NCBI GenBank assembly: GCA_945898275.1
Contig: CAMDHZ010000008.1
Span: 67,542 to 131,541 of the forward strand
Reading direction: 5' to 3'
Length of the DNA: 64,000 bases
From: Chitinophaga pinensis
GTDB lineage: Bacteria; Bacteroidota; Bacteroidia; UKL13-3
Shown here: positions 11,681 to 55,467 of the stretch, in pieces
Layout: each line of letters starts with the position of its first letter
Numbering within the stretch: the first letter of the stretch is position 1
Made by a program: the position numbers and the translations under genes
Notes under the pieces: model-generated
Told to the model about the DNA's origin: nothing
The model's input: the letters and a program-made list of their open reading frames with translations, nothing else
Database searches by the model: none

Positions 11681-11682
11681 TT

Positions 11683-12708
11683 ATGACAGATCTAGCAGAA
11701 AAATTAACAGCTAAAGATTTTTCTTCAGACCAAGAGGTGCGCTGGTGCCCAGGTTGTGGAGATTATTCTATATTAAAGCAAGTTCAAACTGTTTTACCAG
11801 AATTGAACCGACCAAGAGAAGAGTTTGTTTTCATATCAGGGATAGGTTGCTCTTCGCGCTTTCCTTATTACATGGATACTTTTGGTATGCATTCTATTCA
11901 TGGTCGTGCAACAGCCGTGGCTACGGGCTTAAAATCAACCCGCCCAGAGCTTTCAGTATGGATTATCACTGGCGATGGAGATGCCTTATCTATTGGTGGA
12001 AACCACTTCATTCATTTGCTACGCCGCAATCCGGATGTGAATGTATTGTTGTTTAACAACCAAATTTATGGGTTAACAAAAGGACAATATTCTCCAACAT
12101 CTGAGCAAGGTAAGGTAACCAAATCAACGCCAATGGGAAGTTTGGATTATCCTTTTAATCCTATTGCTTTGAGTCTTGGTGCAGATGCAACTTTTGTGGC
12201 ACGCAGCATGGATAGAGACCCGAAGCATTTGCAAATGGTAATCAAAAGAGGCTATGAGCATGCAGGTACTTCCTTGGTGGAAATATACCAAAATTGCAAT
12301 GTATTCAATGATGGCGCATTCGAAATATTTACCGAAAAAGGTTCTAAGAAATTAGAAACCATTATGCTCGAAAATGGCAAGCCACTTGTGTTTGGTGAAA
12401 ACAATGATAAGGGTATAAAACTCGATGGGTTCAAACCGATAATTGTTGATTTGAACGATGCTTCAGTAAACGACCTTTGGATACATGATGAAGAAGACTT
12501 GGTTAAAGCCACTATACTCTCTAGGTTTTATGATGATCCAAGTATTGAAGGTCATTTCCCAAGACCGTTTGGCATTTTCTATGTTAACAACAAGAAAGAA
12601 ACCTTCGATAATTTGTTCAATGCGCAAATCGCATATGCCAAAGAAACTTTTGGCAAAGGAGATTTAGACAAATTGATTGCAGGTAAAGAAACTTGGGTTG
12701 TTAATTAA
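11683..12708 (+). CDS. korB: 2-oxoglutarate/2-oxoacid:ferredoxin oxidoreductase subunit beta (TPP-binding)
   Basis: It has the [10 protein letters not shown] cysteine motif and the TPP-binding GDGD…NN region. It starts 3 nt after korA. Confidence 0.8.
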
Positions 12709-39037: not shown

Positions 39038-40267
39038 ATGCGTAAATTACTGCTTTTACTTTTAGTATTATTTCTTCGGTTTGAACCTAGCTTTGCACAG
39101 GTGTATGGTTGCACAGATCCCTTAGCAACTAATTATAATAATGCAGCTACTAGAAATAATGGCTCTTGCGTTTATGCTAATACGAGTATTGCTCCTGTTA
39201 AGTCTACCTTAATTTCTGACACACTGAATGAAAGTTCTGGCTTAATTATTTATGGAAACCGACTTTTCACGCACAATGACAATACCAATTTAAACTTATA
39301 TGCCTTGGATTCAATTACGGGCAAAATTGTTAATACTTATGAGGTAAAAGGTGCTAGCAATATCGATTGGGAAGACCTTACACAAGATGCAGAATTTTTT
39401 TACATCGGAGATTTTGGAAACAATAGCAGCGGCAATAGAAAGGATTTAAAAATTTATAAGATTAGCAAAGTGTCATTGCTTTCTCGCAATCCTTTGGTTC
39501 AAACCATAACATTTTCTTATGAACCCCAAACCGATTTTAGCCCGCAAGCCGCTAATCAAACCAACTTCGATTGCGAGGCAATGGCAGCTGGCAAAGATTC
39601 CTTGTTTTTATTTTCTAAAGAATGGAGCAGCAATATAACGAGAGTATATTCGGTGCCAAAAGTTCCTGGAAATTATAAACTCAGGCCCTCATCTTCTTAT
39701 GATGTTAAAGGTTTAATTACTGGCGCATCCTTGCTAGAGGATAAGAGAGTTTTATTGCTTTGTGGTTACTCCACTTTGCTTCAACCATTTTTATATTTGA
39801 TGTATGATTATGAACCAGGTAATTTCTTTAGTGGCAACAAGAGAAAAGTACAATTGGATTTAGGTTTTCACCAAGTTGAAGGAATTGCTTCATTAAATGG
39901 GAAACAGGCATTTATTAGTAATGAGCATTTTATTAAACAACCATTAGCAAATAATCCTCAAAAAATTCATGTGCTAAATTTATCTAGTTTATTGGCAAAT
40001 TACTTGGATAATCCACCAACCTCATTGTCTAAAATTACATCTAGAAATGAAGATATTACTGTTTTTCCAGTGCCTAGCGATGGCGTTTTTAACCTAAAAG
40101 GCTTTTATGGTACTTTGGAGTTGTTTAATACTGCTGGAGAATTGTTAAAGCGATTTGAACCAAGTGAAGGTTTGCGAAAAATTGATTGTTCTGACTTGCC
40201 ATCTGGAATTTACTTTCTAAGAGGAAATGAAATAGAAACTATTAAACTTAGTGTTGAAAAACCTTAA
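39038..40267 (+). CDS. Secreted T9SS cargo protein, function unknown
   Basis: It has a signal peptide, an N-terminal Cys-containing motif CTDPLATNYNNAATRNNGSC, and the C-terminal sorting domain ITVFPVPSDGVFNLKG…. Confidence 0.5.
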   Translation: MRKLLLLLLVLFLRFEPSFAQVYGCTDPLATNYNNAATRNNGSCVYANTSIAPVKSTLISDTLNESSGLIIYGNRLFTHNDNTNLNLYALDSITGKIVNTYEVKGASNIDWEDLTQDAEFFYIGDFGNNSSGNRKDLKIYKISKVSLLSRNPLVQTITFSYEPQTDFSPQAANQTNFDCEAMAAGKDSLFLFSKEWSSNITRVYSVPKVPGNYKLRPSSSYDVKGLITGASLLEDKRVLLLCGYSTLLQPFLYLMYDYEPGNFFSGNKRKVQLDLGFHQVEGIASLNGKQAFISNEHFIKQPLANNPQKIHVLNLSSLLANYLDNPPTSLSKITSRNEDITVFPVPSDGVFNLKGFYGTLELFNTAGELLKRFEPSEGLRKIDCSDLPSGIYFLRGNEIETIKLSVEKP

Positions 40268-40340
40268 GAAATTTTTGTTAATTAATTTCTTGCAGAGTAT
40301 TTTTAATATTGATATAATTGAAGACATTTTATTTATTTAT

Positions 40341-41132
40341 ATGAAAAAAAATATACTTTCATTTTTATTTTTACTATTTATTAGTTCTAAAGGTTTTTCT
40401 GCTTTGATGGTAGAAAATTTAAACATAACTGTTAATGCTGCTAATCCAACTGCAAACATTACACCTTCATTTGTACAGTCACCTTTATTTTCTGTTAACT
40501 ATTTTGCAGCTCCAGGTTCAATATCTATTATTGGAAAAAATGTTGCTCAATTTAAAAGTAAACTAGTTGCTGACCTTATTATTCAAAACAACTACCATCC
40601 AACTAGACTTTATAATAACAGCAATGCGAGTGGCTATAGAAATTATTATACCTCACCTATATTTTTTTCGAATAATTCTTTAGGCTTTGTAAATAGATTT
40701 TCTGGTTTAGGTAATCAATATATTGCTGGTCAGGCTATTTTTACCGAAGGAGATACCATAAATTTTTGGATATTGGTTAACTTAAGTGAAGACGCTTCAG
40801 AGTTGAAAATTGTTAAAATAGGATATGACGACGAATCTGGAAAATTTCCTCAAACAGGTACAGAAGGAATGAATATTCCAATGGGAGTTAACGAGAATTT
40901 AGCTTCTAAATTAAATATTTATCCGCAACCAGCCCACGATGCCATAAATATTGAAATGCTAGGTAAGCAAATTGTTTCTAGTAACATATTTAACCTTAAT
41001 GGCGATTTAGTTGCTCAATACGGTTTAAATAGCAATAAAATTGAAGTAGCAAATTTGCCTAGAGGAGTTTATATATTACAAGTAAAATGTAGTGAAGGTA
41101 TTGTTACCAAGAAGGTGATAATTGGCGAATAA
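40341..41132 (+). CDS. Secreted T9SS cargo protein, function unknown
   Basis: I took the start at the signal peptide MKKNILSFLFLLFISSKGFSA (40341) rather than 40251. The C-terminal sorting domain reads LNIYPQPAHDAINIEM…. Confidence 0.5.
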   Translation: MKKNILSFLFLLFISSKGFSALMVENLNITVNAANPTANITPSFVQSPLFSVNYFAAPGSISIIGKNVAQFKSKLVADLIIQNNYHPTRLYNNSNASGYRNYYTSPIFFSNNSLGFVNRFSGLGNQYIAGQAIFTEGDTINFWILVNLSEDASELKIVKIGYDDESGKFPQTGTEGMNIPMGVNENLASKLNIYPQPAHDAINIEMLGKQIVSSNIFNLNGDLVAQYGLNSNKIEVANLPRGVYILQVKCSEGIVTKKVIIGE

Positions 41133-42411: not shown

Positions 42412-45213
42412 TTAGGCCTGGTTTGAACCCACAAAATACATGTCTATTTCTCCCTTGCCTTTTGCAGAAACCTTACCTCTATGGATGCACATAAATTTAT
42501 CTTTTATCAATTCATAGGTACTTTGGCTTATGTTTACCTTGCCTACTTCTCCTGAAGATTCCATGCGTGAAGCGGTATTTACAGTGTCTCCCCAAATATC
42601 ATAGGCAAACTTTTTTATACCCACAATTCCTGCCACCACTGGGCCTGTATGTACACCTATCCTAATTTCGAAATAAGGCAATTGTTCTGCAATTTTTTTT
42701 GCCTTACCCTCTTGCATGAATTGACAAATTTCAAGAGCTGCTTTTACCACGTCTTCTGCATGTGTTTGGTTTGGCATAGGCAAACCACCTGCTGCCATAT
42801 ATGCATCTCCAATGGTTTTAATTTTTTCAATACCATGTTTATGCATAATATGGTCAAATGCAGAGAAACACTCGTTTAAATCACGTACCAATTCTTTCGG
42901 ACTGAGTGTTTCTGACAAGGCTGTAAATCCTTTAAAATCTGTAAACAAAACGGTAACTTCCTCAATTAATTTGGCTTCTGCAGCCCCTGTCGATTTTAAT
43001 TCTTCCGCAACTTCAGCTGGTAAAATATTGAGTAATAACTCGTCACTGCGTTTCTTTTCTTTTGCAGTTCTTCTCAATCCCATAAAAATAGAACTTGCTA
43101 GTAAAAGCATTAAAATAGTACCACCAATAAATAAATTTCTTTGCGCATTTTTAGTTTCTATTTCTTGTTTTTGTGTTTCAACTAAGGCTTGTTGTAATTC
43201 CTTTTCTTGACCCAATACTGTCAATTGGGTAGCTTGCAGTTGCTTTTCCTTTTCAGATATTGTTAGTTGTTTTTCTTTATTTTGCTTTTCAGCTTTTTCT
43301 TTTAAATAGGCAAGATGCTGTAAATCCTTTTCTTTATGGCTGAGTTCTAAATCCATTTGTTTTAGGCCAAGTTCTTGTTGGCTTCTGGCGAACATTTCTT
43401 CACTTAGTTGCTTTTCAAATTTCAATTTAGTTTCATTTTTGTCAAAAGCATACAACATTTCTTTGCGTTCATTCTTACCCTTGATTGCATCTTTTTCAAT
43501 GCTATCTCTTAGCATAATATAATTCTTATATGCTTCATAGGCTTTTGGAAAGTCTCCTTGCTTTTGATAAATCTCACTTAGGCTAGCATAGTTTTCTTTT
43601 TGACCCAATAACCTCCCAATTTCCTTGTTGATTGAAAGAGCTCTGCTTGAGTATTCTATGGCTTTTGTATAACGTTCAATAGGAACAATTCCCATAGCAG
43701 TTAGACCTGCCTCCGAGGCATTATAATACACCTTTCCAATATTACCAAGGTTAATGGCCATATTGGCTTTGTTTCCAAGTTGCTCAAAAATGCTTAGGGC
43801 TTTTTGATTATAGTCTAAAAATTTGGGATAATCAGAAAGTGCTTGATAAACATCCCCAATATTTCCAAGCGTTTCGGCAAAAGCATTTTTATCGCCAATT
43901 TGCTCATTGATGCTTTGTGCTTTTTGATAATAATCTAGCGCTTTGGAATAATTTGCCAAGTAATAATATTCAAGACCTATGTTGTGCAAAAAATTTGATA
44001 TGCTTGTTTTATTCCCTATTTGCTCATTTATGCTAAGTGCCCTTTGATAGTTTTCAATTGCTTTTTCATGTTCAAAAAGATTAGAATTAACCAATCCTAT
44101 TCCGCCATAAGCAAACGCCATTCCTACCTTATTTCCAATCTGTTCATGTATATTTAGTGCTTTTTGGAAGTTTTCAAATGCTTTGGGATAATCAGAATAA
44201 CTCAAATATATATTACCCAAGTTCCCATGAATAGTGGCAGTAGTTCCTTTATTTTCTAATTGTTCATGAATTAATAAGGCTTTTTGAAAATTCACTAATG
44301 CATTTGGGTAGTCCAAATTATTGTAAGAAATCATAGCTATGTTTACCAATAAATTTGCAGCCTTACTTTTATTGCCTATCTGTTCATAAATACTCAAGGC
44401 TCCTAAGTACTTTTCCTGTGCTTTGGCATAATCTGAAAGCGCAGCATGAACCGACCCAATACTGTTTAGATTTGAAGCCATTCCTATTTTATAGCCTAAA
44501 CTTTCATTTATTTTCAAAGCATTTTGTAGGTTTTCAAATGATTTAGGAAATTCGGAAAGGCATTTATAAGCTTGCCCTATACCTGATAGATTATTTGCTA
44601 TGTTGCTTTGATTCCCTATTTGCTCTTGTGTGCGTAGTGCTTTTTGATAATATTCTAAAGCTTTTAAACAATTAGAATTTTTGAGGTGGTAACTTCCAAT
44701 ACTTTCATTTGAAAGGGAAATACCCATTCGATTGTTTAATGCCTCAAATTGATGTAAAGCATTTTCAAAAAGATCCAGGCTCTTTTTTCCTGCTCCTTCT
44801 CGTAAATAAATATATCCAATATTTAAATTGTTTATTGCTGCTCCAAATTTATTTTTCTGTTTTTGATTAATGACAAGTGCTTTATTAAAACAATCCAATC
44901 CAAGAGAATATTCATTCTTAGCTGTATGATTTAATCCTTTGTTGTGGTATGCCTCTGCCAATAAAATTGGATTGTTGAGGTTTTGTGCCAAGCTAATGGC
45001 CAATGTGCTGCTTTCAATACCTTTGTTGGGGTTTATTTTAGCATAGCAAAAAGCTAGTGCATTAAGTGTTTTTAACTTTGAACCATCTTGTTTCGTTTGG
45101 CGCTCGCTGACTTTTATTAAACTATCAAGTGATAATTCTTTAAGGTTTGTTTGCGCCGTTATGGTTCCAGTAAGAAGAAATAAACTACTTAAATACAAAA
45201 AGAATTGTTTCAT
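42412..45213 (-). CDS. Receptor-type class III adenylate/guanylate cyclase with an extracytoplasmic TPR array
   Basis: It has a signal peptide, about 14 TPR-like repeats, one TM helix (LFIGGTILMLLLASSIFMGL) and a coiled coil. The C-terminal CHD cyclase domain reads VTVLFTDFKGFT…IKTIGDAYMAAGG…GDTVNTASRMES. Confidence 0.8.
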   Translation of the reverse strand: MKQFFLYLSSLFLLTGTITAQTNLKELSLDSLIKVSERQTKQDGSKLKTLNALAFCYAKINPNKGIESSTLAISLAQNLNNPILLAEAYHNKGLNHTAKNEYSLGLDCFNKALVINQKQKNKFGAAINNLNIGYIYLREGAGKKSLDLFENALHQFEALNNRMGISLSNESIGSYHLKNSNCLKALEYYQKALRTQEQIGNQSNIANNLSGIGQAYKCLSEFPKSFENLQNALKINESLGYKIGMASNLNSIGSVHAALSDYAKAQEKYLGALSIYEQIGNKSKAANLLVNIAMISYNNLDYPNALVNFQKALLIHEQLENKGTTATIHGNLGNIYLSYSDYPKAFENFQKALNIHEQIGNKVGMAFAYGGIGLVNSNLFEHEKAIENYQRALSINEQIGNKTSISNFLHNIGLEYYYLANYSKALDYYQKAQSINEQIGDKNAFAETLGNIGDVYQALSDYPKFLDYNQKALSIFEQLGNKANMAINLGNIGKVYYNASEAGLTAMGIVPIERYTKAIEYSSRALSINKEIGRLLGQKENYASLSEIYQKQGDFPKAYEAYKNYIMLRDSIEKDAIKGKNERKEMLYAFDKNETKLKFEKQLSEEMFARSQQELGLKQMDLELSHKEKDLQHLAYLKEKAEKQNKEKQLTISEKEKQLQATQLTVLGQEKELQQALVETQKQEIETKNAQRNLFIGGTILMLLLASSIFMGLRRTAKEKKRSDELLLNILPAEVAEELKSTGAAEAKLIEEVTVLFTDFKGFTALSETLSPKELVRDLNECFSAFDHIMHKHGIEKIKTIGDAYMAAGGLPMPNQTHAEDVVKAALEICQFMQEGKAKKIAEQLPYFEIRIGVHTGPVVAGIVGIKKFAYDIWGDTVNTASRMESSGEVGKVNISQSTYELIKDKFMCIHRGKVSAKGKGEIDMYFVGSNQA

Positions 45214-45338
45214 AAAATTGCTAACTATTGGTTTTCAACCTATACAATTAAAGTGAATAAATTAAACTTTTCTGTTTTTTTTTTATCAAACCGAAGGAAA
45301 ACATTTCTTTTGACGTCTAATGCAATAAATTTACTTCC

Positions 45339-45587
45339 ATGAAACTGAATAAAAATATCGCTGTAAGTGATAATGGGTTTATATTTAACCCACTAAGTGG
45401 TGATTCTTTTAGCACCAATCCTATTGGACAAGAAGTTATTCGTTTGATGAAGGAACAAAAAACAAAAGAGGAAATCGTTAAAACATTGGCTCAAAAATAC
45501 AACTCTGAAGAGGCTAATATTGAAAAGGATTTGGTTGATTTTTTTCAAATGCTATTGTCTTATCAATTGATTTCTGAGCATGAGTAA
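45339..45587 (+). CDS. PqqD-like small protein (putative peptide/substrate-binding RRE-type chaperone)
   Basis: Its 82-aa size and sequence pattern (…NPIGQEVIRLMKEQKTKEEIVKTLAQKYN…EKDLVDFFQMLLSYQLI) match the PqqD family. The stop overlaps the ATP-grasp start by 8 nt. Confidence 0.5.
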   Translation: MKLNKNIAVSDNGFIFNPLSGDSFSTNPIGQEVIRLMKEQKTKEEIVKTLAQKYNSEEANIEKDLVDFFQMLLSYQLISEHE

Positions 45588-46629
45588 AAGGAAGATTACC
45601 GTTGCAGTTTCTGGCCTAAACAATATTGATAGTCCAGGTCCAGGAATTCCTGTTATAAGAGGACTTAAAGAAAGCTCCAAATTTGAAGTTAGAATAATTG
45701 GTTTGTCCTATGAGAATCTTGAGCCAGGCCTTTACTTGCATGATTTGGTTGATAAGTCTTATTCCATTCCCTTGCCATCCTCAGGTATGGATAGTTTGTT
45801 ACAAAGACTTGCCTATATCAATAGCATTGAAAATTTAGATGTTATCATCCCAAATTTTGATGCAGAATTGCACAGTTTTATAAAATTAGGTCCGATTTTA
45901 AAACGAGATTATGGTATCTCAAGTTTTATGCCCGATTTGGAAACCTTCGAGAGCCGCCATAAATCAGTATTGTTCGAGTTTGGCGAAAAAAACGAAGTGA
46001 AAGTCCCTAAAAGCAAAATGATTTTCAGTCCGAATGAAATTTTAGCCGTAGGAAATAGCTTTGGTTTTCCGTTAGTTGTTAAAGGAAAATACTACGATGC
46101 CAGCATTGCAGCAACACCTGAACAAGCCATTAATTATTTTCATAAGATTTCTGCCAAATGGGGTTTACCTATTATTCTTCAAGAATTTGTAAGTGGTAAT
46201 GAAGTAAATGTTACAGCAATAGGGGATGGAAATGGGAACTGCATTGGCGCAGTTCCAATGCGAAAACTTTACATTACAGATAAAGGCAAAGCTTGGGCTG
46301 GTATTTCTTTATTAGATGATGAATTAATTGAAATCACCAATAGGGTAATAGGAAATTCTAAGTGGCGTGGTGGTTGCGAACTAGAATTTATCAAAACCAA
46401 CTCAGGCGACTATTATTTATTAGAAATGAATCCTCGCTTTCCTGCTTGGGTTTACTTAGCTGTTGGATGTGGTCAAAATCACCCAGAGGCATTGGTAGCA
46501 ATGGCTTTAGGGGAAGAAGTAAAGCCTTTTGAATCTTATCAGAATGGAAAATTGTTTGTGCGCTATAGCTTCGACCAAATAGTCGATTTAGCAGAATTTG
46601 AAAAAATATCAACTTTAGGAGAATTATAA
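45580..46629 (+). CDS. ATP-grasp-family ligase
   Basis: 349 aa with ATP-grasp motifs: FPLVVKGKYYDAS, ILQEFVSGNEVNVTAIGDG and the catalytic LLEMNPRF. Confidence 0.75.
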   Translation: MSKRKITVAVSGLNNIDSPGPGIPVIRGLKESSKFEVRIIGLSYENLEPGLYLHDLVDKSYSIPLPSSGMDSLLQRLAYINSIENLDVIIPNFDAELHSFIKLGPILKRDYGISSFMPDLETFESRHKSVLFEFGEKNEVKVPKSKMIFSPNEILAVGNSFGFPLVVKGKYYDASIAATPEQAINYFHKISAKWGLPIILQEFVSGNEVNVTAIGDGNGNCIGAVPMRKLYITDKGKAWAGISLLDDELIEITNRVIGNSKWRGGCELEFIKTNSGDYYLLEMNPRFPAWVYLAVGCGQNHPEALVAMALGEEVKPFESYQNGKLFVRYSFDQIVDLAEFEKISTLGEL

Positions 46630-46630
46630 A

Positions 46631-47989
46631 ATGACCAAGTTAACATACGAAAGACCTGTCATTCAGAAATTGAATACCGGCACAATGAATAAGTTTGGTT
46701 CAAGAACCGAATACACACCTGTAACTCATATTGAAGGAGTTTCTGTAAAGTCTTTAATGGCCGACTATGGTTCTCCTTTGTTTGTCATTAGCGAGCCTCA
46801 GATCAGAAGAAATTACCAAAGTGCGGTAAGGGCTTTCAAAACGCGCTACCCAAAAGTTCAATTTGCATGGAGTTATAAAACCAATTATCTCAATGCAGTT
46901 TGTAACGTATTTCATCAAGAAGGTGCTTGGGCAGAAGTTGTTTCTATTTTTGAATACCAAAAGGCAATTAAAAATGGGGTACCTGGGAATAAAATCATTT
47001 TCAATGGTCCTGATAAATCTTCTGATGATTTAAGAACTGCAATCAACAATCATTCTTTAATTCATATCGACCATTTTGATGAATTATACATGTTGATAGA
47101 AATTGCTCAAGAATTAAAAACAAAAGCTACCATTGCCATTAGGGTAAACATGGATACTGGCATTTATCCAATTTGGGATAGGTTTGGTTTTAATTATGAA
47201 AATGGACAAGCCTGGAATGCCATTAATAAAATCATGAGCGCCCCAGAGTTAGAACTCCATGGATTGCATTGTCATATTGGAACTTTTATGTTAAGTGCAG
47301 GTGCATATGCCACTGCTGCTTGGAAACTTTGTGATTTGGCTTGGAATGTGAAACTCAAATGGAATCACATGATTCAGTACTTAGATTTGGGTGGTGGCTT
47401 TGCCTCAGCTAATACACTGAAAGGAAGTTACCTTCAAGGCTCAGATATTATCCCAAGTACAGAAGATTATGCAGATGCAATCGCAACAACCATTCTTAAC
47501 TTTGGGTTCAAACCAGATGAATTGCCAATGTTGTTTTTAGAAACTGGACGATCGCTCATTGACGATGCTGGTTACTTATTAGGGTCTGTGCTCGCAACTA
47601 AGCGACTTAGCGATGGAAGAAGAGCCACCATCATGGATTTTGGTGTTAATTTGTTATTTACAGCCTTCTGGTATAACCATAAAATATCACCAGCCCAAGA
47701 GTTTTCTCATCACACAGAAGATATGGTGTTATATGGTCCATTATGCATGAACATCGATTGTATTAGAGAAAGCATCAATTTACCATTATTGTCAAAAGGA
47801 GATCAAGTGGTGGTGCATAGGGTAGGAGCTTATAATATGACCCAATGGATGCAGTTTATCCAAATGAGACCAAATGTTGTTATGGTTGATGCTAAGCAAA
47901 AAGTACATTTGATTAGAACCAAAGAATCTATTGATACTATGTTGAGATATGAGCTTGTTCCAGAACATTTAGAGCAGTTTAAATTGTAA
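46631..47989 (+). CDS. PLP-dependent decarboxylase, fold type III (Orn/DAP/Arg decarboxylase family 2, LysA-like)
   Basis: It has the PLP-lysine motif FAWSYKTNYLNAV, glycine-rich YLDLGGGF, the EPGR-like motif FLETGRSLI and the C-terminal YGPLCMNIDCI. It starts 1 nt after the ATP-grasp stop. Confidence 0.8.
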   Translation: MTKLTYERPVIQKLNTGTMNKFGSRTEYTPVTHIEGVSVKSLMADYGSPLFVISEPQIRRNYQSAVRAFKTRYPKVQFAWSYKTNYLNAVCNVFHQEGAWAEVVSIFEYQKAIKNGVPGNKIIFNGPDKSSDDLRTAINNHSLIHIDHFDELYMLIEIAQELKTKATIAIRVNMDTGIYPIWDRFGFNYENGQAWNAINKIMSAPELELHGLHCHIGTFMLSAGAYATAAWKLCDLAWNVKLKWNHMIQYLDLGGGFASANTLKGSYLQGSDIIPSTEDYADAIATTILNFGFKPDELPMLFLETGRSLIDDAGYLLGSVLATKRLSDGRRATIMDFGVNLLFTAFWYNHKISPAQEFSHHTEDMVLYGPLCMNIDCIRESINLPLLSKGDQVVVHRVGAYNMTQWMQFIQMRPNVVMVDAKQKVHLIRTKESIDTMLRYELVPEHLEQFKL

Positions 47990-47992
47990 AAT

Positions 47993-50131
47993 TTGAAGAT
48001 TCCCCAACGTTTTAGTTTCTGGATAAATAGTGTATTGAATAGCTATGCACAAGTGTTTTTTAGCCTTAATAAAGTTTTGGCCATAACCTTGTTTGCAGTA
48101 ACCTTTATTAATCCAAGTGTTGGTGTATTCGGATTGCTAAGTGTCTTGGGCAGCAATGTGATGGCCTATGTTTTAGGCTTTGATAAAAAGCAAGTTGAAA
48201 AAGGGATTTATGGTTTTAATGCCTTGTTACTTGGCTTGGCATTGGGTTATTTATATGCCTTTTCACTTGCCTTTCTTTTATTATTCATCATTTCCATTTT
48301 TGCCGTTTTTTTTATCACAGCAGCTTTACAGGCCTCCATGGGTAAAATAAATTTACCATTTTTAAGCCTGCCATTTTTGTTTTGCTATTGGATGATTGCA
48401 TTGGCTTCTCCTCAATTAAGTGCCTTAAGTTTTAAGACTATACAAACTTTGCAAGTTGAATTTAGTTACTTTGAATTTCCAGCTTTTTGGAAAGTGTTTT
48501 TTAATACGCTATCTGCTACCTTTTTCAATAAATCTGTTTGGGGTGGTTTATTAATTGCAATTGCGTTGTTTCTTTCCTCGAGAATTGCATTTAGCTTAGC
48601 CTTATTAGCCTACCTTTCTGCTTATGGTGCTTATCAAGTTTTTGGCGTGGATGTAGCAGCATTAACAGATAACTTGGTTGGTTCAAACTTTATCTTTTTT
48701 GGAATTGCAATTGGCTGCTTTTACCTTATTCCAAATGTGTATTCTTATTTAACAGTGATTGTTTTTACACCAATTTTAATGCTGTTATTGGTCGGTTTGA
48801 ACCAAGCGTTTGCGGTGTTTCATTTAAATGGGTTTACCCTCGCTTTTACTTTGTTAACCATGTTGGTATTGTATGCCTTACACCACAGGTGGATTCCTCG
48901 CTTTTTATACTTGGTGCAAATCCAGTATTATTCTGCAGAAACTACAATTTATAAATATCTAAGCGCAGTAAAAAGGTTAAAATATGCGCAACACAATCAA
49001 TTTGCACTTCCCTTTTTTGGAAGCTGGAAGGTAAGTCAAGGGTATGATGGAAAATTAACTCACTTGGGCGAATGGAGTAATGCCTTAGATTTTGTAATTA
49101 GCGATGAGCAAAACAAAACGTATCAGCTAAGTGGATTAAAAATGAGTGATTATTATTGCTACAATAAACCTGTTTTAGCTCCTGCTGATGGGCTCGTGAT
49201 TCAGATTGTTAATCACATAGACGATAATGAAGTTGGTGAGGTGGATACCAAACAAAATTGGGGAAATACCATTATTCTTAAACATGCCGAAGGTTTGTTT
49301 TCTCAAATAAGTCATCTGAAGAAAGATTCTTTTAAAGTTAATGAAGGCGCATGGGTGAGCAAAGGAACTGTTATAGCAAGTTGTGGAGCAAGTGGAAGGT
49401 CTCCAGAGCCACATATTCATTTTCAAATTCAACAATCTCCTTTGATTGGTTCAAAAACTTTGATTTACCCAATTGCTTATTATATGAGTCAAGATGTTTC
49501 TGGATTGCAGTTAAATTATTTTGAGATACCAAAAGAAGATGCGCTCATTTTTAATGTAGAAACCCAAACTTCTTTAAAGCAAGCTTTCGATTGGCAACCT
49601 GGCAAAAAATTAGTTTGGTTCAACCAAAAACATCCTTCTAAATTAACCAGTTTTGAAGTGTTTACAGACGCCTATAATAGAACTTATATTTTTTGCGCTT
49701 CAACAGGTTCTTACGCCTATTTCATTAATGATGGCTCTCGCTTTTACTTTACAGATTTTGAAGGGGATAAGAAGGGTTTTCTTTTTCAATTGTATCTATC
49801 TTGTTTTTCTGTTTTATTAGCGCATTATCCCTCGCTCAAAATGAAAGATAACATCCCACAAATACATTTTCAAGTGCCAATATTGCATTGGATTCAAGAT
49901 GTAATTGCGCCATTTTATGTGTTTAACAAAGTTGTTTTCGAAGGTGAAAGTAGTTTAACTAATAGTTCTGCAATGCAGTCTAATTATTTGCTTTCAAGTG
50001 AAATTGTAACGCGTTTTATGGGGTTAAAAGTAGCAGCTCAAAGTTACAAAGTTGCTATTGGAAAGAAGGGCTTAGAAAAAATAGAATTTCAACAAAATGG
50101 TGTTAATGAAGAGTGGCTATGCATAAACTAA
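47993..50131 (+). CDS. Fusion protein: N-terminal urea-transporter (UT)-like polytopic membrane domain + C-terminal M23/LytM metallopeptidase domain
   Basis: The N-terminal ~330 aa have about 10 TM segments and a UT-like signature (…NSYAQVFF…GIYGFNALLLGLALGY). The C-terminal M23 motifs are HAEGLFSQISHL and GASGRSPEPHIHFQIQ (HxxxD/HxH). Confidence 0.6.
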   Translation: MKIPQRFSFWINSVLNSYAQVFFSLNKVLAITLFAVTFINPSVGVFGLLSVLGSNVMAYVLGFDKKQVEKGIYGFNALLLGLALGYLYAFSLAFLLLFIISIFAVFFITAALQASMGKINLPFLSLPFLFCYWMIALASPQLSALSFKTIQTLQVEFSYFEFPAFWKVFFNTLSATFFNKSVWGGLLIAIALFLSSRIAFSLALLAYLSAYGAYQVFGVDVAALTDNLVGSNFIFFGIAIGCFYLIPNVYSYLTVIVFTPILMLLLVGLNQAFAVFHLNGFTLAFTLLTMLVLYALHHRWIPRFLYLVQIQYYSAETTIYKYLSAVKRLKYAQHNQFALPFFGSWKVSQGYDGKLTHLGEWSNALDFVISDEQNKTYQLSGLKMSDYYCYNKPVLAPADGLVIQIVNHIDDNEVGEVDTKQNWGNTIILKHAEGLFSQISHLKKDSFKVNEGAWVSKGTVIASCGASGRSPEPHIHFQIQQSPLIGSKTLIYPIAYYMSQDVSGLQLNYFEIPKEDALIFNVETQTSLKQAFDWQPGKKLVWFNQKHPSKLTSFEVFTDAYNRTYIFCASTGSYAYFINDGSRFYFTDFEGDKKGFLFQLYLSCFSVLLAHYPSLKMKDNIPQIHFQVPILHWIQDVIAPFYVFNKVVFEGESSLTNSSAMQSNYLLSSEIVTRFMGLKVAAQSYKVAIGKKGLEKIEFQQNGVNEEWLCIN

Positions 50132-51432
50132 TAATAGGTTTTTTATTGTTATTTTCTTTCGTTTCAAATGCTCAAACGCCTGCTGAAACTTATATTGATA
50201 GTCTTAGTTATGCCTTTTTTAATCAGTATGACTATTCAGAATTAAAACAACTCGGCAAAGAAAGTTTAAAGCAAGGAATAGATTTCTTTTACCTCAGAAC
50301 GCGATTGGGAATTGTTGCTTTTAGAGAGGCAAATTATGAAGCAGCTTGGCATCATTTTGAAAAAGCAGAAAAAATGCAATCTGGCGATAATGTGGTTTTA
50401 GAATATCTCTATTGGAGTTACGTATATACAGGACAAAATGATAAGGCAAATGCCTTGTATGAAAAATATCAAAGTTTGGTTCAAAGCATTCTCCCTGGAA
50501 TAGCCAATAAACAACAAAGCGAAATTGAAATAGGCACACTGCAAACCCAAAACCAAAAGAATTACTTTGATCAGGTGTTAAGAAAAACGGGTGATGCCTA
50601 TGCTGGTGGGAGTTTCTTTTCTTCCATGCATTACTTAAGGTTGTATCATGAACAAAGATTTAAACATAATTGGAGAATCTTTGCTGGTGCTGGAATGTAT
50701 CAGGTGCAAAGTTTTTCAAATGTTTGGACCGAAAACCAATTTCCACCACCCGATAGCTTTTCCTTAAGCCAAAGCGATCCAAATGTTCAGCTTAATTTTG
50801 GTTTATCAAAGTTGTTTTCAAAGGGCATTCGTGCATCTTTTTCTGCAAGTTATTATCATGAAAGATTTACCTCAAATGGTCAGAATACTCAACAGAGTTT
50901 GCTATCTAATAATTATTATGGTGTTGCTGCGGCTATAAGTAAGCGATTTAAATCGTTTGAGCCTGTTGTATTAGTTTCAGTTTTTGATGTTGACGCTGCC
51001 GATAGAATTCAAGTTGAGGCTGGAATTACTTTATTCCCATTTAAAAAGAATAACTTCTTTTCTTTTTCTTCAATTGGTTATGCAAATAATCAGTTTACAC
51101 AAACAAGTGGTTTGATAGCTTTACAGAAATTGGGTTATCATTTTAACAAAAGCACCATGGTTCAAACTTCTTTTTTATATGGTGAGCTAGATAACTATAT
51201 GGGAAATCTAGGATTTGTTACCCTCAATACTTTCGATCCAGTTGATTGGATTGGTTCGGTTCAAGCCGAATTTAAAAAAGGTAAATTAACTTGGTTACCA
51301 GGGTATCAATTGCAATCAAGAAGTAGTTTTTATTCACAATCTCAATCTCTAAACAATATTGAAGATTATAGCAATACAGAATATTCTTATTTTAGTCACT
51401 TAATTTATTTAACCTTAAGATATACACCTTAA
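50113..51432 (+). CDS. Hypothetical secreted protein, possible outer-membrane beta-barrel
   Basis: It has a signal peptide (LLLFSFVSNAQ). The N-terminal part is TPR-like and helical. The C-terminal part has an alternating beta-strand pattern. It overlaps the upstream gene. Confidence 0.4.
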   Translation: MAMHKLIIGFLLLFSFVSNAQTPAETYIDSLSYAFFNQYDYSELKQLGKESLKQGIDFFYLRTRLGIVAFREANYEAAWHHFEKAEKMQSGDNVVLEYLYWSYVYTGQNDKANALYEKYQSLVQSILPGIANKQQSEIEIGTLQTQNQKNYFDQVLRKTGDAYAGGSFFSSMHYLRLYHEQRFKHNWRIFAGAGMYQVQSFSNVWTENQFPPPDSFSLSQSDPNVQLNFGLSKLFSKGIRASFSASYYHERFTSNGQNTQQSLLSNNYYGVAAAISKRFKSFEPVVLVSVFDVDAADRIQVEAGITLFPFKKNNFFSFSSIGYANNQFTQTSGLIALQKLGYHFNKSTMVQTSFLYGELDNYMGNLGFVTLNTFDPVDWIGSVQAEFKKGKLTWLPGYQLQSRSSFYSQSQSLNNIEDYSNTEYSYFSHLIYLTLRYTP

Positions 51433-51434
51433 TT

Positions 51435-52040
51435 ATGAACAAGCTAATACTCTCTGTTTTCATGTTAATCTCCGGATTTTCAGCCCTAGCTCAAGAAAAT
51501 TTAAAGATTGCTTTTCAAAAAAGTTATGAGCAAGAAAAGGCTAAGCAATACAAAGAAGCTTTGCAAACCATCATGGCTTTTAATGACCCAAGTGTTTATG
51601 AAACTCAATTAAGGTTGGGCTGGTTAAATTATTTAGCTGGCAATTTTGCTAAGTCAGCAGAGCATTATCAAAAGGCTGGAGACTTAGTTCCTACTGCTAT
51701 AGAGCCACTTTGGGGCATTATTTATCCTTTGAGTGCTTTAGAAAAATGGACCAACGTAGAAAATGTATACAAAGAAATATTAAGGCGTGACCCAAAGAAT
51801 ACCAAAGCAAATTATTACATGGGATTAATTTATTATAATAGGAAAGATTATACCAATGCTAAAAAGTTTTTAATGGAGGTATATCAACTTTATCCTTTCG
51901 ATTTAGATGCTTGTTTGCTTTTGGGCTGGACGCATTATTTCTTGGGCAATAAAGTGGAGGCCAAAAAGATGTTTAACAAGGTTTTACTGCAACAATCAAC
52001 CAATGCTTCGGCCAAAGAAGGCTTAGGTTTGTGTGGTTAA
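51435..52040 (+). CDS. Secreted TPR-repeat protein
   Basis: 201 aa with a signal peptide and 3-4 TPR-like repeats. It starts 2 nt after the upstream stop. Confidence 0.5.
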   Translation: MNKLILSVFMLISGFSALAQENLKIAFQKSYEQEKAKQYKEALQTIMAFNDPSVYETQLRLGWLNYLAGNFAKSAEHYQKAGDLVPTAIEPLWGIIYPLSALEKWTNVENVYKEILRRDPKNTKANYYMGLIYYNRKDYTNAKKFLMEVYQLYPFDLDACLLLGWTHYFLGNKVEAKKMFNKVLLQQSTNASAKEGLGLCG

Positions 52041-52046
52041 ACCCGA

Positions 52047-52463
52047 ATGATTACATTTGGAAAAATTATTCCATTGAAAGACTTTAAGAAATACTATATC
52101 ATTACAGCCACGCCAGAGGAGGTTTATTTGGCTTTAACCACCGAAATTACCATTCAATTATGGACCAGTGATTTTGCGCATTTTGTTGCAGAGCCGGGTA
52201 CTGAATTTTCTATGTGGGATGGTAGTATTATTGGAAAAAATTTAGTACTTGAACCGAGTAAAAAAATTGAGCAACAATGGTATTTTGGAGAAGAAGAAAC
52301 AGATACGCCAAGTATTGTTACCATCAAATTACATGAACACAAGCAGGGAACCTCGATGGAAGTAAGGCAAAGTAATATTCCTGATGAAGCTTATGATGAT
52401 ATTACTGAAGGCTGGGACAACTCTTATGCAGGCGCATTGCAAGAGTTTTATGAGGAAGATTAA
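52047..52463 (+). CDS. SRPBCC-superfamily protein (AHSA1/Aha1-like)
   Basis: 138 aa. Its size and residue pattern fit the Aha1/BPI-like START/Bet v1 fold. It is the last gene of the operon. Confidence 0.45.
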   Translation: MITFGKIIPLKDFKKYYIITATPEEVYLALTTEITIQLWTSDFAHFVAEPGTEFSMWDGSIIGKNLVLEPSKKIEQQWYFGEEETDTPSIVTIKLHEHKQGTSMEVRQSNIPDEAYDDITEGWDNSYAGALQEFYEED

Positions 52464-52497: not shown

Positions 52498-53268
52498 TTA
52501 TTTATGTCTGAACCAACAATCCTTTCGCTCATTTTCATACATTTTAAAAATAGTGTTAACGGGTGTGCCGTGTATTAATTGGCTGTTAAATTGAGTTCTT
52601 GCTAGGTAATTAAAGGCTCCCATGTCGCCCGTATATTCGCTTTGATTGTCTAGGTTGTATTTTAAATGGATGTCACAGAGTTTTTGAATTAGTTCTTTCA
52701 TCACAGTAATGTTTCCTCCAATGATGCCGCAATTTAGGAGGAAATCATTTGCATGCTGCTCCTCGAAATCAACATAATCCTTAATTTTACTGCGCAAGTG
52801 GGTTGAATGTGCATGCATCCATTCGTTGTTAAGGATGATTGGCTCATCTCCGCAGAAGATAGCTTGAGGATTTTCCAAAAATAGTTGCTCCTTAAAAGGG
52901 TTTTTAACCACAACTACATCCGCGATATCGGTTACAAAAATACTTTCTAATTTATGAAAGTGTTTTTCAATAAAATCTCTATAAACAAAATAACGATAGG
53001 TATTTGTGTTGAACTGAGGGTTAAAATCTACTTTAACAAATTTGATGTATTCAGTTTCAAATTGCTTGCAGGTTTCGTTGGAAAATTTGTTGTGAAAAAT
53101 AACCCCATGAAGTTTTAAGGCTGAGATAGATTCTGCCCATTCTCGCACCAATTCATAATAGTCATCTGGTAAAGTAGTTTTTCTATTGACATCATATATA
53201 CCAGAAAAAAGACAAGCCAAGATTAGGTTTTTGGAAGTTGGAATGTAATTCCGAATTTCATCTGCCAT
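52498..53268 (-). CDS. Hypothetical protein (256 aa), co-transcribed with a GT2 glycosyltransferase
   Basis: Its start overlaps the stop of the upstream GT2 gene. I recognised no motif. Confidence 0.4.
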   Translation of the reverse strand: MADEIRNYIPTSKNLILACLFSGIYDVNRKTTLPDDYYELVREWAESISALKLHGVIFHNKFSNETCKQFETEYIKFVKVDFNPQFNTNTYRYFVYRDFIEKHFHKLESIFVTDIADVVVVKNPFKEQLFLENPQAIFCGDEPIILNNEWMHAHSTHLRSKIKDYVDFEEQHANDFLLNCGIIGGNITVMKELIQKLCDIHLKYNLDNQSEYTGDMGAFNYLARTQFNSQLIHGTPVNTIFKMYENERKDCWFRHK

Positions 53269-53921
53269 TAAACTTGTGGAATTAGATTTTGCTTTTTAAG
53301 AGATGAACAAATGCTATTGGGAACATTTCTATAATAAACATAAGTTCTTAGGTTAGCTTTTTTTACCCTAAATTGTTTTTTGGCTCGAGCAAAAAATTCT
53401 GCATCTGCTGCAAAACTGTCCCTAAAAAATAGAGTTGTAAATACTTCTCTTCTCCCAAATAAGGTGGCAAATAAGGTACATTCATCTACATGTATTAAGC
53501 GAGTTATGTCATTTTTATCCGGAACATAATAGTCTTCCAAACTATCCACAACTGTTTCTGTAGAAGAAGAAATTAAATCTACATAATCCATTTCTTGCAG
53601 GCAGGCGCTTAAGTGATGCGGTTTATAGGCATCATCGCTGTCAATGATGGTAATAAATTCTCCCACACTCTTAACTATCCCGCGATTGATAGACTGTGAT
53701 TGACCGCAGTTGCTATGTCTCATGTAAATGATTTTATCTTCATTTAATTCAACATATTTTGCAATTTTACGGCTGCAACTCAACTCACTGCCATCGTCAA
53801 TAATAATAAATTCAAAATCTTGCAAATCTTGGTTCAAAACCGAATCTATAGCCCTCTTTACCAATGCGAAATCAGTATTGTAAACAGCCATTAAAACAGA
53901 TACTTTTACTTGATTTGACAT
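53268..53921 (-). CDS. Glycosyltransferase family 2
   Basis: The N-terminal GT-A motifs are VSVLMAVYNTD and FIIIDDGSEL (DxD). Confidence 0.8.
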   Translation of the reverse strand: MSNQVKVSVLMAVYNTDFALVKRAIDSVLNQDLQDFEFIIIDDGSELSCSRKIAKYVELNEDKIIYMRHSNCGQSQSINRGIVKSVGEFITIIDSDDAYKPHHLSACLQEMDYVDLISSSTETVVDSLEDYYVPDKNDITRLIHVDECTLFATLFGRREVFTTLFFRDSFAADAEFFARAKKQFRVKKANLRTYVYYRNVPNSICSSLKKQNLIPQV

Positions 53922-54093: not shown

Positions 54094-55467
54094 ATGAAAC
54101 GAAAAATTTACTTTTTAGCTTTATTTTTCTTAAGTTATAGCGCTGCTATTGCACAAATTTCGCCAGATTTAACGGGTAGACTGCAAAACACACTTGATAG
54201 TATTTGCACAAAATACAAGGTTAAAGGTGCTTCTGCTGCTTTGCTTTTGCCTAATGTTGGCACATGGACAGGCACCTTTGGAATCTCTAAACCAGGTGTA
54301 CCCATATCTCCACAAATGGCCTTAGGAATGGGTAGCAATACCAAAACCTATATTGCAGCTCTCCTGCTAAAATTACAAGAAAAAGGTTTGTTAGATTTAG
54401 ATGATTCTATTGGTAAATGGATTCAAGGTTACCCAAACATCAATACCAGCGCTAGCATTAGGCAATGCCTAAATCACACCTCTGGTAATAAAGAATATTT
54501 GAACGCTAGTTTTAACGATAGCCTTCTTTTAAATCCACCTAAAATCTGGACCATGGAAGAAGTATTAAGTACTGTTGGTGCGCCCAACTTTGCACCTGGA
54601 GCTTCTTGGGGCTATTCAAATACCAATTTTATAGTAGCTGGAATCATTATTGAAAAGGTGGCTAAAATGTCTTTTGCCAATGCAATGAGTGTTTATGTTC
54701 TTGAACCTAATAATTGGAATAGTACTTTCTTTTTTGGCGAACCAAATCCGGCACCTATTCCTAGTCAGTGGACCATGAACCTTACAGGAACCAGCTTGGT
54801 TGAAATGAATACTTATCCAATAAATATTATCAATCAATTGTTTAGTGCTGCGGGCCCCGCAGGGGCCATGATGGTAACAGCAGAGGAGAATGTTCAATTC
54901 TGGTACAAACTTATCAAAGGTGATTTATTATCTAAAGCATCGCTTCAAGAAATGACCAGCACCGTTAGGCTAAATAATTCTGTGTCTTATGGCCTTGGAA
55001 TTTTTAGGTATAACAGAGAAATAAATAACCGCACTATATACTGTCATGGCGGAACTTTTATTGGCTTCATCAACGAGAATGCAGTTGACACACTTTCGGG
55101 CGTTACCATTTCTGTATTAACCAATCAAGATAGTTTAGATAACGATTTTCTGTTATCTGTAGTTATTCCAGCCTTGCACAAACATGTGCTTAATGCGCCG
55201 CCAACTGGCATAGATGACTTTAACAACAATGCCTCATTTAAACTTTTTCCAAATCCTGCCAATGATTTTGTGAATATCGATTATCCTTTGGCTAATGCAA
55301 ATGATGTTTGCCAAATCATTGATATCAATGGGAGAATTGTGAAGCAACAGTTCTTGGTTCAAACCAAGCTAAACCTTACCGACTTAAACAATGGCGTTTA
55401 TTTCTTGCAAATTTTTAAGCACAATGGCAATGCTGTTTTAACGCAAAAACTTGTTGTAGCACACTAA
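54094..55467 (+). CDS. Class C beta-lactamase-related serine hydrolase with a T9SS C-terminal sorting domain
   Basis: It has a signal peptide and the SxxK active-site motif GSNTKT. The C-terminal sorting domain reads FKLFPNPANDFVNIDY…. Confidence 0.7.
   Translation: MKRKIYFLALFFLSYSAAIAQISPDLTGRLQNTLDSICTKYKVKGASAALLLPNVGTWTGTFGISKPGVPISPQMALGMGSNTKTYIAALLLKLQEKGLLDLDDSIGKWIQGYPNINTSASIRQCLNHTSGNKEYLNASFNDSLLLNPPKIWTMEEVLSTVGAPNFAPGASWGYSNTNFIVAGIIIEKVAKMSFANAMSVYVLEPNNWNSTFFFGEPNPAPIPSQWTMNLTGTSLVEMNTYPINIINQLFSAAGPAGAMMVTAEENVQFWYKLIKGDLLSKASLQEMTSTVRLNNSVSYGLGIFRYNREINNRTIYCHGGTFIGFINENAVDTLSGVTISVLTNQDSLDNDFLLSVVIPALHKHVLNAPPTGIDDFNNNASFKLFPNPANDFVNIDYPLANANDVCQIIDINGRIVKQQFLVQTKLNLTDLNNGVYFLQIFKHNGNAVLTQKLVVAH

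Follow-up and report, generated by a model that had tools for sequence, protein, structure and literature searches.

What links a peptide-recognition protein, an amide ligase, a decarboxylase and a channel-like protein fused to a peptidase? The question is raised by positions 45339-52463 of a 64,000-nucleotide stretch of Chitinophaga pinensis DNA (contig CAMDHZ010000008.1; the whole stretch is referred to below as the window), where the listing of open reading frames (ORFs) shows seven ORFs on the + strand. An initial annotation had described them as a seven-gene operon and had proposed that an ATP-grasp ligase and a pyridoxal phosphate (PLP) decarboxylase act one after the other on a peptide or a carrier-bound substrate. 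This interpretation is partly supported by our analysis. Six of the genes are one evolutionary unit, a real and tightly packed operon, carried by thousands of Bacteroidota and by members of other phyla as well. What they do together can be stated more tentatively: the reading that we prefer, and hold as possible, is a ligate-then-decarboxylate system which is guided by a recognition element (RRE) of the kind known from peptides that are made on the ribosome and modified after translation (RiPPs) and which ends at a channel-tethered hydrolase. The genes and domains concerned are the following, with TPR for tetratricopeptide repeat and UT for urea transporter.

45339..45587, + strand: g1, PqqD-family RRE, 82 aa
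45580..46629, + strand: g2, ATP-grasp amide ligase, 349 aa
46631..47989, + strand: g3, fold-III (alanine-racemase-fold) PLP decarboxylase of the FigC-like type, 452 aa
46631..46717, + strand: N-terminal extension of g3, residues 1-29, with Y6-E-R-P-V-I11 (nt 46646-46663) and N20-K-F-G23
47993-50131, + strand: g4, UT::M23 protein of three domains, 712 aa, TTG start
47993..48892, + strand: g4 domain 1, putative membrane channel of urea-transporter fold, residues ~1-300
49010..49462, + strand: g4 domain 2, M23 metallopeptidase, predicted cytoplasmic, catalytic residues intact
49463..50131, + strand: g4 domain 3, C-terminal, beta-rich and conserved, residues ~491-712
50113-51432, + strand: g5 as listed, 439 aa, GTG start
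50119..51432, + strand: g5 from its probable start, outer-membrane protein with a signal peptide, a TPR-like helical domain of ~100 aa and a 14-strand beta-barrel
51435..52040, + strand: g6, periplasmic TPR protein with a signal peptide, 201 aa

The ORFs and their junctions agree between the initial annotation and the ORF listing; g1 overlaps g2 by 8 nt, 1 nt separates g2 from g3 and 3 nt separate g3 from g4, g4 overlaps g5, and gaps of 2 nt (g5 to g6) and 6 nt (g6 to g7) follow. Only the start of g5 was amended. Since a 100% identical database protein (P0412) is 437 aa in length, g5 probably starts at ATG 50119 and not at GTG 50113, and its overlap with g4 becomes 13 nt instead of 19 nt. The domain calls were reproduced by Pfam for six of the genes, and for g5, which has no Pfam match, by its fold.

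The presence of the genes elsewhere was scored one by one by tblastn over 80 metagenome loci, which came from a scan of metagenome contigs (ATP-grasp identity 57-82%), and a gene was counted only where the contig leaves room for it. On this basis g1 is present in 75 of 80 loci, g3 in 64 of 66, g4 in 48 of 55 and g6, in syntenic position, in 33 of 37. Five of the seven absences of g4 are in distant variants or paralogues, and the other two (L045 and L046) are one sequence type. Identities in these loci are 60-75% for the decarboxylase, 37-60% for PqqD, 34-49% for UT::M23, 35-48% for the TPR protein and 20-38% for the barrel. Co-occurrence of the ATP-grasp, decarboxylase and UT::M23 genes had been put forward by the initial annotation as one way to check its operon, and was indeed found: the order g1 to g6 is kept in nearly every related locus that is long enough, over a range of ATP-grasp identity from 82% down to ~38%. 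The same six genes in the same order stand between quite different flanks in 'Bacteroidetes bacterium B1', Fluviicola, a Flavobacteriia metagenome-assembled genome (MAG) and others; because the order recurs with unrelated flanks, the arrangement is not due to chance. Database searches returned more than 6,500 relatives of g2, with identities of 72-90% among the best 120, and more than 2,600 full-length relatives of the UT::M23 fusion. Searched with g2, a set of 1.8 billion representative proteins gave 216 representatives at E < 1e-30, including tandem-duplicated proteins of ~710 aa and fused forms.

The seventh gene did not stand up as a member of the unit. The product of g7 is a protein of the AHSA1/SRPBCC family (Pfam PF08327, E 3e-17), its gene was found in 0 of the 80 metagenome loci, and it was seen only in the window, L001, L002 and L004. 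Since it is confined to the closest relatives, the conserved unit consists of six genes, and g7 was rejected as a part of the system. On the other side, the system extends beyond Bacteroidota, the group in which the initial annotation had suggested looking for it. A Magnetococcales MAG (L010) possesses PqqD, ATP-grasp, decarboxylase and UT::M23, without the barrel and the TPR protein; a GC-rich contig (L097) carries all six genes with different flanks; and a Riflebacteria protein is a member of the family.

More distant loci show how the parts are joined. The soil contig L011 encodes a secreted TPR protein, PqqD, a tandem ATP-grasp protein, a decarboxylase and a UT::SIR2 protein; L012 encodes a TPR protein, a PqqD::ATP-grasp fusion, a second, degenerate ATP-grasp, a decarboxylase and a UT::SIR2::GNAT protein; and L013 encodes PqqD and an ATP-grasp::decarboxylase fusion. 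These natural fusions (PqqD::ATP-grasp, P0322; ATP-grasp::decarboxylase, P0284) tie the ligase to PqqD on the one hand and to the decarboxylase on the other. In L013 the fusion gene is followed by a gene (10670-12583) for a 637-aa protein, which has no UT domain, shows faint matches to Guanylate_cyc and DUF5939 and may replace the channel protein, and then by a PAS hybrid histidine kinase gene. In L006, L007, L009 and some ten metagenome loci the cluster has a LytS-type kinase and a LytTR regulator beside it, and other kinases or a methyl-accepting chemotaxis protein lie near it in L010, L011 and L013.

Several loci carry parts of the cluster. In L008 (9001-13214) the TPR gene stands before the barrel gene, and PqqD, ATP-grasp and decarboxylase genes were not found within 9 kb; on the opposite strand, 1.4 kb upstream, is a gene for a fold-I Orn/Lys/Arg decarboxylase of 920 aa (OKR_DC_1), and a class A penicillin-binding protein (PBP) is encoded downstream. 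In L045 and L046 (L046 4800-9128) the cluster ends at the decarboxylase and is followed by unrelated small genes, with no UT::M23 gene within 4 kb. L015 (7747-9047) and L096 (9001-10056) contain Bacteroidota paralogues of the ATP-grasp gene, 47-49% identical, with neither a decarboxylase nor UT::M23; the PqqD-like partner of one has Tyr at the equivalent of N27, and the other has no PqqD.

The decarboxylase g3 has the Pfam domains PF02784 and PF00278. Its solved relatives are 7kh2 (FigC, N-citrylornithine decarboxylase; E 9e-61), LysA (6e-45) and BtrK (1e-23). The protein scores 222.6 bits against the LysA model TIGR01048 (cut-off 297.9) and 236.6 bits against the FslC/FigC model NF041039 (cut-off 500); FigC is its closest solved relative and not an equivalog. 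The CES motif of LysA binds the distal centre of diaminopimelate (DAP). The active-site loop of g3 reads GPLCMNID, akin to GPSCMQHD of FigC and unlike G.LCESSD of LysA, with CMN in the place of CES; with this motif absent and the score under the equivalog cut-off, g3 was rejected as LysA. Members of the FigC branch are decarboxylases with enlarged pockets, not polyamine enzymes, which act on diamino acids that have been linked beforehand to citrate by the amide bond of a ligase; the substrates of FigC and SbnH are N-citryl-diamino acids made in this way (PMC7857480). This chemistry is the strongest support for ligation followed by decarboxylation. By analogy with FigC, and in view of the two kinds of natural fusion, the order of reactions proposed in the initial annotation appears to be the best logic for the operon. 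A synthetase of the non-ribosomal peptide synthetase-independent siderophore (NIS; IucA/IucC) type was not found among the listed neighbouring genes of g3 loci.

The product of g2 matches ATPgrasp_Ter and CPSase_L_D2 in Pfam, the nearest NCBIfam models (including the PRK12767 'CPSase-like' models) are all under cut-off, and the best solved structure is 2pn1 (E 2e-8). Its scores are 13.2 bits against LysX_arch (cut-off 275.6) and 12.7 bits against rimK_fam (cut-off 143.4), and LysX, RimK and Ddl were rejected as its identity on family-model scores. Both enzymes thus lie outside the primary-metabolism orthogroups, in keeping with the novelty that the initial annotation had claimed for them. The ATP/Mg residues K168, E282, N284 and R286 are conserved among 48 distant homologues. 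The C-terminus of g2 (46595-46626), which ends in F-E-K-I-S-T-L-G-E-L-COOH, is strongly conserved in almost all Bacteroidota orthologues.

The third protein of the enzymatic half, g1, is a PqqD-fold RRE. It matches Pfam PF05402 (E 5.8e-13, 49 bits against a cut-off of 23) and is under the cut-off of all NCBIfam PqqD subfamilies. Over 63 orthologues, including four distant lineages, Asn27 is conserved in 97%, Asp64 in 94% and Phe68 in 89%. N27 and D64 are 37 residues apart, the same spacing as that of N33 and D70 in LppB, in which N33, D70 and F74 bind the Tyr and Pro of the leader (PMC13381572). Discrete RREs bind the motif [Y/W]xxPx[L/V/I/F/A], as in lasso, LPP and fosfazinomycin leaders (PMC13381572; PMC13622209), and residues 6-11 of g3 (YERPVI) match it. 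The C-terminus of PqqD is not conserved (SEHE / NDHE / DDDKA) and has no conserved terminal Glu, which argues against a LysW-like carrier; such a carrier on the PqqD C-terminus was rejected.

The motif of g3 lies in a tail with the consensus M-x-K-L-x-Y-E-R-P-x-I-x-K-L-N-x-G-x-x-N-K-F-G, and the alignments of solved decarboxylases and family models to g3 begin only at about residue 30, downstream of it. At the same position of the tail, [Y/W/F]xxPx[LVIFAM] is present in 75 of 76 g3 orthologues, including those of the Magnetococcales MAG, L012 and L097; in the ATP-grasp::decarboxylase fusion it is internal (AYVRPSI). Conservation is 95% for Y6, 98% for P9, 92% for I11, 95% for G17, 97% for K21 and 95% for G23, and the mean frequency of the top residue is 0.73 in the tail versus 0.74 in the catalytic body. 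Because the tail carries the RRE motif and g1 keeps N27, D64 and F68, we propose that PqqD may dock on the tail of g3. The PqqD-like call of the initial annotation for g1 was confirmed, but it overlooked this tail, which may be the ligand of PqqD.

The UT domain of g4 was identified by Pfam PF03253 (E 7e-47) and has the UT fold; it is followed by the M23 peptidase domain and then by ~220 residues without a family, for which PDB fold searches gave no convincing structural match. Against the yut equivalog TIGR03441 g4 scores 96 bits (cut-off 274.6). The first half of the UT domain keeps the signature motifs and the second half has diverged. Among the genes of the neighbourhoods examined, no urease or urea-catabolism Pfam family was found. 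The zinc-binding and catalytic pattern of M23 enzymes (H-x(n)-D, catalytic His, HxH) is present in g4, and H357, D366, H441, H474 and H476 are invariant, also in the Magnetococcales protein.

No membrane helix follows the last UT helix of g4, and the side of the membrane on which the peptidase lies is suggested by the variant clusters. UT::SIR2 in L011 (11544-13217) and UT::SIR2::GNAT in L012 (7233-9344) replace UT::M23 in otherwise equivalent clusters, and the GAGxS, catalytic His and Cys4 motifs of the two sirtuins are intact. SIR2 enzymes require NAD and GNAT enzymes acetyl-CoA. As NAD- and acetyl-CoA-dependent domains hold the same position, the M23 domain probably faces the cytoplasm, which is unusual for the family, and peptidoglycan would thus be out as its substrate. 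A reading of this domain as a periplasmic processing enzyme is therefore not retained, and a role as peptidoglycan hydrolase was rejected on the same predicted location. No published description of UT-fold::sirtuin fusions was found.

The remaining two proteins belong to the envelope. The fold of g5 combines a TPR domain with a 14-strand outer-membrane beta-barrel, and g6 matches TPR_2 and other TPR families. Secreted TPR proteins are also encoded beside the core in L011, L012 and L097, and signal peptides were found on g6 as well as on the L011 and L012 proteins. A route over the envelope for small molecules fits better than export of a polymer, and the export role that the initial annotation suggested for the genes after g3 is putative. 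Synthase-dependent exopolysaccharide export (PgaA / BcsC / PelB) was rejected, as its combination of TPR, a 16-18-strand porin and a glycosyltransferase synthase was not found.

An RRE calls up the question of a precursor peptide, of which the initial annotation had seen no obvious ORF. Three screens were used: blastp clustering of ORFs of 12-99 aa in 7 and then ~90 loci, a comparison of shared 5-mers over 350 nt upstream of PqqD, and a scan of ORFs directly for [YW]xxPx[LVIFAM]. All that they yielded besides PqqD was frame shadows of the large genes and the tails of regulator genes lying upstream. No conserved ORF of 10-99 aa outside the large genes, and none with YxxP at a fixed place, was found in the ~90 loci, and a precursor encoded in cis was rejected. 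The sole conserved YxxPxI of the cluster is that at the N-terminus of the decarboxylase.

The preferred reading can be set out in five steps. In the first, PqqD would dock on the decarboxylase tail (YERPVI) and so gather ATP-grasp enzyme, tail and decarboxylase. In the second, the ATP-grasp enzyme would form an amide through the side chain of an amino acid, leaving the alpha-amino acid end free; the acceptor would be the g3 tail, with Lys21 of the conserved NKFG as the best candidate, or a small partner. In the third, the PLP enzyme would strip off the alpha-carboxylate to give an amine-terminated amide, and in the fourth the cytoplasmic M23 domain, or SIR2 in other lineages, would hydrolyse the amide at the mouth of the UT-like pore. 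In the fifth, a small polar product would cross the inner membrane and, in Bacteroidota, pass by way of the TPR proteins to the 14-strand barrel. Our confidence is highest in ligation and decarboxylation and decreases through amide cleavage by M23 or SIR2, docking of PqqD and the tail as carrier to exit through UT channel and barrel.

A stronger form of this reading, which we consider doubtful, makes the decarboxylase the bearer of its own leader and carrier arm. Lys21 lies about ten residues past YERPVI; an amino acid held on it by an isopeptide bond could swing into the PLP site, and would then be cut off by M23 or the sirtuin and released into the UT pore. SIR2 enzymes are N-epsilon-acyl-lysine deacylases, and the tail as a carrier through Lys21 fits with this.

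Several points weigh against the five steps, all of which are inferred. The conservation of the tail could be structural, for example by dimer contacts, and independent of PqqD; Lys21 is Arg in the lineage of the L013 fusion, and the motif in the L011 tail is shifted (YEPMRL). In L008 none of the three enzymes is encoded near the UT::M23, TPR and barrel genes, and L045 and L046 carry the enzymes without UT::M23, so that the enzyme half and the channel half can separate; L015 has a paralogous PqqD-like and ATP-grasp pair without a decarboxylase. The UT pore is narrow and its second-half signature degenerate, and conduction is only putative. A peptide encoded in trans, beyond the 64 kb, is also possible.

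Of the other explanations, the one that survives best is a small-molecule pathway without any carrier, which we regard as possible but rather unlikely. Here the ATP-grasp enzyme would work in the manner of NIS synthetases and join two metabolites, for instance Orn, Lys or Dap by its side-chain amine to a carboxylic acid; the FigC-like enzyme would turn the product into an N-acyl-diamine and the UT-like channel would move it, with PqqD as an accessory and M23, SIR2 or GNAT trimming or capping. FigC and SbnH do act on free small conjugates, universal metabolites are suggested by the very high conservation of the ATP-grasp enzyme and of the decarboxylase, small amides are suited to UT pores, and the GNAT domain of the L012 fusion could N-acetylate a free amine. 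However, such a pathway leaves unexplained both the leader-like tail of the decarboxylase and an RRE which is invariably present with intact peptide-binding residues and is sometimes fused to the ligase, and M23 and SIR2 enzymes normally cut amides linked to peptides or proteins.

The intact RRE would be accounted for by a conventional RiPP or scaffold-peptide pathway, in which PqqD binds a short precursor encoded elsewhere, the ATP-grasp enzyme extends it or ligates it at a side chain, decarboxylation, cutting by M23 and export of the product follow, and the g3 tail is unrelated. There is a precedent: an RRE and an ATP-grasp enzyme work on a scaffold peptide of 21-22 residues that was initially missed by ORF finders (PMC13622209), and high conservation of the enzymes would suit a conserved peptide. 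We think this explanation unlikely, since RiPP precursors usually adjoin their RRE, the small-ORF screens of the ~90 loci gave no candidate, and the only conserved YxxPxI is on the decarboxylase.

A conflict or defence system, with a sensor and a biosynthetic module serving swappable effectors on a membrane anchor, is very improbable. The exchange of M23 for SIR2 or SIR2 plus GNAT and the presence of TPR proteins recall the effector shuffling of defence islands, but the order is fixed and the enzymes, 57-90% identical across Bacteroidota orders, are not patchy; the SIR2 domains retain the deacylase-type NAD motif, the catalytic His and the Cys4 zinc module; the flanks are housekeeping or regulatory genes and no defence islands; and PADLOC models gave no significant match, with one marginal match of PqqD to PbeC (E 0.001). 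Equally hard to credit is primary metabolism or the cell wall, that is, LysA with a LysX/RimK-like ligase, a true urea transporter and a periplasmic M23 murein hydrolase brought together by chance or for envelope remodelling: the database names ('diaminopimelate decarboxylase', 'carbamoyl-phosphate synthase large subunit', 'urea transporter/MepM'), the usual action of M23 enzymes on peptidoglycan and the PBP1 gene near the L008 copy speak for it, yet every curated equivalog cut-off is missed, the CES motif of LysA is absent, strict synteny and fusions exclude chance, and an M23 domain placed in the cytoplasm by the SIR2/GNAT argument would be unable to reach peptidoglycan.

Two further features adjoin the six genes in the window.

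45214..45338, + strand: leader and promoter region 5' of the operon, 125 nt
52047..52463, + strand: g7, AHSA1/SRPBCC protein, lineage-specific passenger outside the core, 138 aa

The leader had been said to contain only trivial ORFs; these are in fact non-conserved, and the leader has no Rfam match. GC is ~0.35 throughout, with no compositional break. As initially annotated, the operon is bracketed by genes on the - strand, a divergent one on the 5' side (42412-45213) and a convergent one on the 3' side (52498-53268). The flanking genes encode a TPR and class III nucleotide cyclase protein, an M20 peptidase, a family 2 (GT2) glycosyltransferase and cargo proteins of the type IX secretion system (T9SS). 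The product of 42412-45213, 933 aa in length, combines a signal or anchor sequence with long arrays of TPRs, a coiled coil and a membrane helix, and has a class III adenylate/guanylate cyclase domain. Its gene, which separates the M20 peptidase gene from the operon, is present only in the window and L001, a 97% relative; since the M20 gene directly abuts the operon in L002 and L004, the cyclase gene is a recent insertion. The TPR-adenylate cyclase and the M20 peptidase, both lineage-specific neighbours, were rejected as parts of the system. C-terminal T9SS sorting domains (Por_Secre_tail) mark the products of three genes within 39038-41132 and 54094-55467, one of these products being of beta-lactamase fold, which confirms a Bacteroidota host with type IX secretion. 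On the 3' side, 52498-53268 encodes a 256-aa protein without Pfam match, and the gene overlaps the start of the GT2 glycosyltransferase gene (53268-53921); this pair is also present in L001 and elsewhere is not associated with the operon.

The six-gene cluster, very common and spread over several phyla, is misannotated as 'urea transporter', 'diaminopimelate decarboxylase' and 'carbamoyl-phosphate synthase'. Should the preferred reading be true, an RRE 'leader' may lie inside an enzyme, which would change the mining of RRE clusters that have no precursor; a biosynthetic pathway may have its exit or entry at a UT fold, with a tethered peptidase or sirtuin as the gate; and many environmental Bacteroidota would make a new amine-bearing metabolite or modification, often near LytS/LytTR or other sensors. 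Neither an enzyme-borne scaffold nor release-coupled export through a UT fold has been described before. No published description of the cluster was found in the full-text literature, in which subscription papers are partly covered, so that an earlier mention is possible.

With known systems the six proteins share membership at the level of fold and domain only. FigA/FigC (FslA/FslC) of rhizoferrin and SbnH of staphyloferrin biosynthesis follow the same logic, in which a side-chain amide link comes first and loss of the alpha-carboxylate second, and the CM motif is shared with FigC. They differ in using a NIS synthetase where an ATP-grasp enzyme is found here, and the operon is without siderophore transport or receptor genes; compared with FigC, it has an obligatory RRE and g3 has an extra, leader-like tail. 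In butirosin biosynthesis (BtrI/BtrJ/BtrK), similarly, an ATP-grasp enzyme tethers Glu to a carrier, on which it is decarboxylated by a fold-III PLP enzyme. However, Pfam found no PP-binding domain (an acyl carrier protein with phosphopantetheine site, as in butirosin) in the cluster proteins; the candidate carrier here would be a peptide tail presented by PqqD, and release would be by M23 or SIR2 and not by an acyltransferase. LysW/LysX is alike in concept, an ATP-grasp enzyme placing an amino acid on the tail of a small protein so that later enzymes use the tethered substrate, but PqqD has neither the conserved C-terminal Glu nor the zinc ribbon of LysW, and the pathway is not lysine or arginine biosynthesis.

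The RRE itself resembles lasso-peptide B1, LppB and fosfazinomycin FzmT/FzmZ in being a stand-alone PqqD fold with the Asn/Asp/Phe triad and in having its motif in the same cluster. In contrast to these discrete-RRE systems, the motif is on the N-terminus of a 452-aa enzyme and not on a short precursor, and the operon has no lasso cyclase, kinase or asparagine-synthetase-like partner. From the bacterial and mammalian urea channels (dvUT, UT-B), g4 differs by its fusion to ~410 residues of M23 and beta domain and by diverged pore motifs in the second half. In design, by analogy only, it recalls peptidase-containing ABC transporters, in which an amide-cleaving domain is likewise tethered at the cytoplasmic side of a membrane conduit; there an ABC pump is combined with C39, and here a passive, narrow channel of UT fold with M23 or SIR2. 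The likeness suggests that in this operon, too, release may be coupled to export.

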